Shown in pieces: positions 1-771 of a DNA stretch of 19,594 bases (position 1 is the first letter of the stretch; each line of letters starts with the position of its first letter). Position numbers and translations under genes: made by a program. Source of the stretch: a virus; the UHGV virus genome UHGV-0143126; one strand, 5' to 3'. The notes under the pieces are model-generated. The model was not told where the DNA came from and did not search any database. It was given only the letters and a program-made list of their open reading frames with translations.

Positions 1-49
1 TTATGTTAACGAAAGGATTGTACAGTAAAGCGTATTTGTTAACGAATCA

Positions 50-739
50 TTAAATGCCGAGTGGGAAAATATCATGGCCTTGTTCCTGCCAACTGGTAAG
101 TTGCTGCTGTTGGGCAGAGGTTCGATTTTCACCGCACCACACCAGCAATGTACGGCCTTCGAACAGTTCAGGGCGTAGTTGATTGAGCGAGTGGGCGAGG
201 ACATCAATGCGCCATCCTTGTTGACTGGCAATCCAGCCCTCCAGCCACAGACGGGTGGTATCGTGAATATTCCAGCCAACCACCAGCGCATCTTTACCCT
301 GTTTTTTACGTGCCGAAGCCAGACAAATGGCGATGTAGTTGATCAGTACGCCGTCGAGGATCGCCAGCAGCGCCTGGAGGGTCGGTTGTTGGCACTGAAG
401 TCGTCGGCGCAGAGGAATAAATAGGTGTGTGGTGAGTGTCTGGGCGGGGTAATCCTGACCGCGCTCTTTGATCCACGTTCGCAGGCTATGCAGATTGCCG
501 CTTTGCAGGTAAGTCAGTAATGTTTCTTGCTGATCGCGCCAGCCGTTGTGCACATCAACATTTTCATTACTGAGCAGCATTTTAACTTTGCTGACCTGCA
601 CGCCGTTGTCGATCCATCGTTTGATCTCGCGGATCCGGTCAATATCGGCATCATTGAACAGCCGATGACCGCCGTCTGTCCGTTGCGGTTTCAGCAATCC
701 GTAACGCCTCTGCCACGCGCGTAACGTGACAGGGATTAA
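50..739 (-). pseudogene. mlrA: 5'-truncated MerR-family regulator MlrA (YehV); N-terminal HTH-coding end replaced by prophage sequence
   Basis: Translation ...VTLRAWQRRYGLLKPQRTDGGHRLFNDADIDRIREIKRWIDNG... matches the MerR-type HTH and MlrA as recalled. Upstream in frame the sequence becomes KLAKSVSLPLIP and hits a TAA 11 codons further up, with no ATG. Integrase gene lies immediately adjacent. Confidence 0.75.
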
Positions 740-771
740 GGGTAAACTAACTGATTTTGCAAGTTTTTATT
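698..771. other. Approximate prophage/host attachment junction (att core lies somewhere in here)
   Basis: Similarity to mlrA is lost near 739 and the integrase stop is at 772. Exact core cannot be defined without the other prophage end or an empty site. Confidence 0.4.

Follow-up and report, generated by a model that had tools for sequence, protein, structure and literature searches.

The window analyzed here, that is, the whole stretch of 19,594 nucleotides from virus genome UHGV-0143126, opens with sequence of the bacterial gene mlrA (yehV) and then passes into a phage integrase gene. The question raised by this locus is whether a prophage has entered the regulator gene at positions 1-771 and, if so, what remains of MlrA. 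MlrA boosts the RpoS-dependent expression of csgD (PMC5931665). The first-pass annotation of this DNA had proposed a prophage inside mlrA, with loss of the N-terminal DNA-binding end of the regulator. Our results lead us to consider a lambdoid prophage at its usual attachment site in mlrA to be the best explanation, with a probability of roughly 93%. Positions 1-771 would then represent the integrase-proximal junction of the prophage (attL in lambda terms).

The attachment core and the junction with the integrase gene

We aligned the window with both junctions of VT1-Sakai, the far junctions of the lysogens AST217 and AR_0013, and the empty sites of strain NCTC86 and of O55:H7 CB9615. The alignment gave a 20-bp core, CACGCGCGTAACGTGACAGG, at positions 714-733, which was common to both prophage junctions and to the empty sites. 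In the mlrA sense, the core reads CCTGTCACGTTACGCGCGTG (positions 733-714) and consists of codons 17-22 and the first two bases of codon 23. The presence of the same core in the window, in the empty sites and at both junctions of related lysogens bears out the proposal that the prophage lies inside mlrA. The prophage would have entered by Int-mediated site-specific recombination into this core, at codons 17-23 of a gene that regulates curli and biofilm in E. coli.

The DNA homology to unoccupied mlrA ended at positions 733-739. When the core is read in the mlrA direction, the sequence on its right agrees with mlrA, and that on its left is phage DNA almost the same as in VT1-Sakai. Positions 734-771, an arm of phage origin that joins the core to int, have lost the homology to the empty site, and their identity to the VT1-Sakai and AR_0013 lysogens continues; they hold an ATC at 734-736 and an in-frame TAA at 767-769. 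At the other edge, positions 1-49 are the chromosomal spacer downstream of mlrA, between yohO and mlrA. The annotated loci of NCTC86 and AR_0013 place the first base of the window 10 nt beyond yohO, and this spacer is collinear with all E. coli genomes.

The frequency of the junction was determined in a sample of 5,426 complete E. coli genomes. Positions 1-739 were matched in 5,424 of the 5,426, and a match that runs across the junction into int, with this integrase abutting the mlrA fragment, was found in 458 (8.4%). The intact site, detected as at least 80% coverage of a 400-bp probe centred on the empty site, was present in 4,944 genomes (91%). The 458 genomes belong to about 482 that have no intact site, so about 95% of these are explained by one integration module. 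On the basis of the 5,424 and the 458 genome matches, the prophage/mlrA junction is not a chance pattern.

The PCRs that define the yehV junctions were reportedly introduced by Shaikh and Tarr in 2003. We took the primers and the product sizes as they are reproduced in PMC3874044. A PCR across the junction, which had been suggested as a check, was computed on the window: primer F (CACCGGAAGGACAATTCATC) matched positions 1243-1224 with 0 mismatches and primer B matched positions 420-442 with 2 mismatches. The resulting product was 824 bp, which is the published size for the left junction of an occupied yehV.

The integrase gene (positions 772-2058, minus strand) encodes a full-length tyrosine integrase of 428 amino acids with the Pfam domains Arm-DNA-bind_2 and Phage_integrase. 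It is of the Sp15/VT1-Sakai type, since it shares 425 of its 428 residues (99%) with the integrase of VT1-Sakai (Sp15), which is the Stx1 prophage of O157:H7 Sakai. Adjacent to it is an excisionase gene (positions 2092-2346, minus strand; Pfam DUF1233 putative excisionase, 2e-29), which is called xisR in the annotation of AR_0013 and AST217. The int-xis DNA was 97.6-98.4% identical over about 1.7 kb to that of VT1-Sakai, YYZ-2008, BP-4795, JLK-2012, Stx2a_1447, Stx2a_WGPS2, vB_EcoS_phi330 and PhiR5_1. The VT1-Sakai record (AP000400) carries a 20-bp "attachment site" at both ends, in a position that aligns with the core of the window, and it describes a "truncated YehV" as well as a yehV coding sequence "divided by the insertion of prophage". 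The identity of the integrase, this attachment site and the 824-bp product all agree with the claim that mlrA/yehV is a known site of Stx phages. Thus, the window has what characterizes a lambdoid prophage integrating into yehV/mlrA, namely, an integrase of the VT1-Sakai type, a core in codons 17-23, and an adjacent excisionase gene.

The integrase gene had been described as beginning next to the junction. It does adjoin the junction, but it is the end of the gene that lies there, and its stop codon (772-774) is situated 38 nt beyond the core. Int and the mlrA fragment are therefore co-oriented, with the 3' end of int abutting the fragment. Reading of the sequence and a scan found no terminator-like element between int and the core; the terminator-like matches in the scan of positions 1-2500 fell inside int and were at chance level. 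This co-orientation, with no terminator in between, fits the "run-off transcription" reported in PMC5931665. A candidate arm-type Int-binding motif, ATGCCCCATA, was found at positions 786-795, and AST217 has two copies located about 130-150 bp inward from its far junction; the counts did not exceed the shuffled expectation.

A small polymorphism was observed beside the core. At position 734, the phage, the three far junctions and the empty O55:H7 site all have a C, whereas NCTC86 has a T. Codon 16 of mlrA is accordingly AAT or AAC, a synonymous difference; the AAC allele, which lengthens the identity between attP and attB from 20 to 21 bp, was the one present at the far junctions of the three lysogens examined, as well as at the empty site of O55:H7 CB9615. 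We also considered whether the single-base differences beside the core (TTAAT versus TTAAC, plus one additional C on the phage side) indicate an aberrant or illegitimate junction. This reading was rejected, because the empty site of CB9615 already has AAC and the junction sequences of VT1-Sakai are identical.

The mlrA fragment and its missing 5' end

The 3' fragment of mlrA, hereafter mlrA', occupies positions 50-733 on the minus strand. It consists of codons 17-243 and the stop codon (TAA at positions 52-50), and it has no promoter, ribosome-binding site or start codon. The minus-strand frame over positions 50-802 is translated as ...KLAKSVSLPLIPVTLRAWQRRYGLLKPQR... and ends in ...FPLGI. The first-pass annotation had read this frame as MlrA followed upstream by unrelated sequence that reaches a stop with no ATG. 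That description stands, but the match to MlrA starts two residues earlier than had been thought (PV, directly before TLRAW). Upstream of Pro17, the frame continues for 11 unrelated codons (K L A K S V S L P L I) to the TAA at 767-769, and none of these 11 codons is ATG, GTG or TTG. The alignment to intact mlrA that placed the core at 714-733, which had been named as the way to decide the matter, revealed no full-length mlrA with its own start codon in this region. The start codon and the upstream promoter region of intact MlrA are absent, and the DNA upstream of mlrA' is phage DNA. A promoter scan of positions 1-2500 found no sigma-70-like promoter able to drive mlrA'. The first canonical in-frame start after the upstream stop is the TTG of Leu30 (positions 695-697, minus strand), from which an open reading frame of positions 50-697 was listed; a GAGG sits 9 nt upstream of this TTG, and the codon may serve as a start.

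The residues from Pro17 to Ile243 were identical to those of the intact 243-residue MlrA of NCTC86 at 225 of 227 positions, the two differences being Q78H and Q173H. At the codon level, there were 11 synonymous and 2 non-synonymous differences and neither a frameshift nor a stop; mlrA' therefore shows no sign of decay. We had considered decay of mlrA' as a mark of an old, fixed insertion, and these counts led us to reject it.

The domain content of mlrA' was then compared with that of the intact protein. The Pfam MerR_1 profile, which has 69 positions, aligned over positions 16-68 in mlrA' and over positions 1-68 in intact MlrA, and the CarH/LitR-type MerR domains, which are the closest solved relatives, align from MlrA residue 3. 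That is, mlrA' does not have a complete N-terminal MerR-type helix-turn-helix (HTH), as its residues 1-16 are replaced. Since the profile match begins at position 16, the loss is that of HTH helix 1 and not of the whole DNA-binding domain. The earlier statement that the N-terminal DNA-binding end was removed thus holds for residues 1-16 with helix 1, but the rest of the MerR domain is kept. The recognition helix, the wing and the remainder of MlrA are still encoded, and the Pfam domains MlrA_helical (9.1e-32) and MlrA_C (1.4e-33) are complete. The loss of the promoter, the ribosome-binding site and the start codon is more decisive than that of helix 1.

The far junction and the structural genes lie outside the window, and the makeup of this junction is known from the relatives AST217 and AR_0013. 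AST217 is the closest relative, with 99.4% identity over 99% of the window, and about 44.5 kb of prophage lies between its mlrA' junction and a far junction beside btsS; AR_0013 is arranged in the same manner. As read from its sequence, the far junction of AR_0013 contains the upstream region of mlrA, the ATG and codons 1-22, and then a TGA of which the A is derived from phage DNA. The far junction of AST217 aligns identically, and PGAP lists the 22-codon stub as a 66-nt incomplete "hypothetical protein". Thus, integration parts the promoter, the ribosome-binding site, the start codon and helix 1 from the remainder of mlrA. We infer the same far junction in the source genome of UHGV-0143126.

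At the far junction of AST217 (L005 4340-4881) and of VT1-Sakai (L007 304-701), the mlrA promoter and the stub face into the prophage, toward a DinI-like gene, so that host stationary-phase transcription could read into this phage gene. In VT1-Sakai, the gene is annotated with a promoter of its own and a LexA (SOS) box. As a separate observation, mlrA' of the window differed from that of AST217 at 11 of 684 nt (98.4% identity), compared with the 99.4% identity over the whole window. This difference suggests, at the level of sequence comparison, that nearly the same phage lysogenised different host lineages.

The fate of MlrA and alternative explanations

We think that the gene would exist in such a cell as two fragments. 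One fragment would contain the sigma-S-dependent promoter of mlrA, the ribosome-binding site and codons 1-22 followed by TGA, and would lie at the far end, about 44 kb away in the closest relative. The other would be the promoterless and startless mlrA', codons 17-243, beside the 3' end of int. Since mlrA is split in this way, the cell has no full-length MlrA. By analogy with the published work on the same junction in O157:H7, the activation of csgD, the formation of curli and the formation of biofilm would be lowered, and Int/Xis-mediated excision at the core would be expected to rebuild mlrA exactly. The claim that an insertion in mlrA lowers curli and biofilm formation is indeed stated in the literature (PMC5931665, PMC3874044). 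The restoration of mlrA by excision of Sp15 has also been reported, with cured cells being rarely recovered (PMC5931665). Among non-O157 STEC, the insertion was less frequent, with 4 of 19 strains, of which two were stx1-negative O145 strains that were positive in the junction PCR (PMC3874044).

An alternative is that mlrA is functionally intact, the prophage being merely adjacent, and that a 228-residue MlrA is made from the ATC at positions 734-736. In favor of this, PGAP calls an unflagged MlrA in AR_0013 and AST217, and also under the half-matches of O157:H7 genomes, and a survey of 2026 has a "phage-proximal" class. However, the native promoter, the ribosome-binding site, the ATG and 16 codons are missing here and lie at the other end of the prophage in the relatives, ATC is not ATG, GTG or TTG, and no Shine-Dalgarno-like motif was seen by eye before it. 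The absence of a sigma-70-like promoter from positions 1-2500 and the replacement of HTH helix 1 argue in the same direction, and the junction was treated as a disruption in PMC5931665. We therefore regard an intact mlrA as extremely improbable. Another possibility is that mlrA' is not silent. That is, read-through from int together with internal starts such as the TTG of Leu30 might yield a truncated, non-DNA-binding MlrA that modulates the curli network through its C-terminal domains. The co-orientation of int, whose end is 38 nt away from the core with no terminator-like element in between, and the GAGG at a distance of 9 nt from the TTG are compatible with this. Moreover, distal mlrA RNA was strongly induced after SMX-TM treatment (SOS induction), by 62-fold in qRT-PCR at 30 C, and truncated distal MlrA can be made, with recombinant truncated forms restoring some Congo-red binding, though not biofilm (PMC5931665). 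Because a truncated distal MlrA with partial effects can be expressed, the word "null" may be too strong for mlrA'. Against this, csgD was not raised despite the high level of distal mlrA RNA (PMC5931665), and the sequence gives no sign of translation. A modulating fragment is thus unlikely in our judgment, and it would supplement the insertion of a prophage into mlrA rather than take its place.

The disruption might also be permanent, if the prophage is a fixed and defective remnant. The window spans 19.6 kb of the prophage region, and the related AR_0013 has frameshifted terminase and portal genes, both of which are consistent with a remnant. On the other hand, neither int nor xis is truncated, and 99% of the Int residues agree with those of Sp15, which is competent in excision. 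AST217 has a complete lambda-like gene set whose head, tail, replication and lysis genes contain no pseudogenes; its pseudogenes are limited to a DUF4222 gene with an internal stop and to tail-fibre-assembly fragments at the far end. In addition, mlrA' is free of decay, and virions have been isolated of phages that carry the same int, such as PhiR5_1 and BP-4795. We therefore consider a fixed remnant fairly unlikely.

The practical value of the present result lies in annotation. In AR_0013 and AST217, PGAP describes the fragment as a 228-residue "HTH-type transcriptional regulator MlrA" (WP_042030043.1) with no pseudogene flag, starting at the phage-derived ATC that is equivalent to window positions 734-736 (AR_0013 L002 3050-3736; AST217 L005 48879-49565). 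The O157:H7 genomes with half-matches are likewise labelled mlrA. Such a label can hide the disruption from annotation-based surveys, and it may be the source of the class "phage-proximal but not inserted" in the survey of 2026 (PMC13516484). Because pipelines label the fragment as a normal 228-residue MlrA from the ATC, such strains will be misclassified in surveys based on gene calls or stx status. We think that strains with the mlrA junction should be scored as mlrA-disrupted and as probably impaired in curli and biofilm at the MlrA step, even when they are free of stx.

The remainder of the prophage and its relatives

The remaining part of the window contains early, replication and late genes of lambdoid type. 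The gene of a CI-like repressor (6801-7496) is followed by Rha-family and ash-family genes; next come two kinds of replication genes, DnaC-like and DnaB-like, and a gene of the DUF968 family. In the late region, a QuuD-type late antiterminator Q (14662-15060, plus strand; Pfam Phage_antitermQ, 2.9e-53; quuD in AST217) precedes an OmpC-family phage porin gene (15249-16391, minus strand), and this in turn precedes a class II holin gene (16904-17119) and a lysozyme gene (17119-17616), both on the plus strand (Pfam Phage_holin_2_1 and Phage_lysozyme). The porin matched Pfam Porin_1 (1.7e-151) and the NCBIfam model "porin OmpC" (521.7 bits, cut-off 484). It thus lies between Q and holin on the opposite strand, which is the position of stx in Stx phages. 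No stx was found between Q and the lysis genes, as the interval 15061-16903 holds the porin as its only open reading frame of any size, and a tRNA scan found no tRNA genes in the window. These results confirm that the prophage carries a porin instead of stx between Q and S. Within the window, it does not belong to the Shiga-toxin-converting phages, and an stx gene in a part beyond the window would be atypical.

Two further features of this region were observed. The porin reading frame is open for 380 residues from its first ATG, the family models align from about residue 21-29, and the annotation of AST217 gives 1083 nt and 360 residues; translation probably starts some 20 codons into the reading frame, downstream of position 16391. 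Between the porin and holin genes lies a non-coding stretch of about 510 bp.

The window shares with Sp15/VT1-Sakai and CP-933V, the O157:H7 Stx1 prophages in yehV, the same integrase, excisionase, core, junction sequence, orientation, yehV' fragment and 824-bp PCR product. In contrast to Sp15/VT1-Sakai, its late region has neither stx nor tRNA genes and has an OmpC-family porin between Q and S. Outside int-xis, its DNA differs from VT1-Sakai, and even the best phage matches extend over no more than 55% of the window. Similarly, BP-4795, YYZ-2008, JLK-2012 (O55:H7), Stx2a_1447, Stx2a_WGPS2, vB_EcoS_phi330 and PhiR5_1 have the integration module in common, whereas the cargo, immunity, replication and late modules differ. 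Such differences among phages with the same int are the normal mosaicism of lambdoid phages. The first-pass annotation had spoken of a different occupant of the site, which is right for the cargo and most other modules but not for the integration module, as this is that of Sp15. That is, int, xis and the core would come from the Sp15/VT1-Sakai type, and the rest would be mosaic, with the porin replacing stx between Q and the lysis genes. Since the int-xis module is shared and the remainder is mosaic, the occupant is a normal mosaic relative of Sp15 and not a new kind of element.

Lambdoid phages that carry porins are known, such as DLP12, with its gene order quuD-nmpC-essD-rrrD, and PA-2, with the Lc porin. 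The layout of Q, porin, holin and lysozyme in the window is presumably that of DLP12. The annotation of AST217 names the genes of this block quuD, ompC, essD and rrrD. The same block, with the porin on the opposite strand, also occurs in the phages ev207, 2G7b, PhiR49_1 and Lambda_4C10. Coverage of the Q-porin-holin block was 80% or more in 36 sequenced phage records, the best of which matched it from end to end at about 96% identity. In the window, CE10 and AR_0013, the porin module is joined to the mlrA-specific integrase, and prophages with this combination are located at mlrA in CE10 (O7:K1), AR_0013 and others. Earlier work has already described the attachment site, the integrase, the effect on curli and the porin module, and biologically nothing here is new.

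In active lysogeny, a regulator interrupted by a prophage is rebuilt by excision, as is the case for the Listeria phage phi10403S in comK. The present prophage resembles phi10403S in that it lies site-specifically inside the coding sequence of a regulator and in that a precise excision would restore the gene; the features of active lysogeny in the window are the sequence prerequisites, namely, apparently intact int and xis and an exact core. One may speculate that a toxin-free porin prophage acts as a reversible switch in non-STEC hosts, turning curli and biofilm off and adding a phage porin, and that excision or a truncated MlrA restores or modulates the phenotype in a subpopulation. If this were true, the mlrA site would be selected for its phenotype and not just as a landing pad. 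We consider such a switch very unlikely.

Several other genes and RNAs were noted in the early region. Rfam models detected isrK (8785-8861, 57 bits) and the C4 antisense RNA (8886-8973, 80.4 bits) in tandem on the plus strand. They follow the Rha-family gene and fall within the open reading frame 8728-9390 or at its beginning. This frame is an ash-family gene in the annotation of AST217 and gave a weak Rha-family match in NCBIfam. The region looks like a putative small-RNA-controlled module of the antirepressor type in the early right operon. On the early-left (b/exo) side, two accessory genes, both on the minus strand (3190-4017 and 4652-4870), encode an SPFH/HflK-C-like protein and a product that is named ParE family toxin-like protein in AST217.
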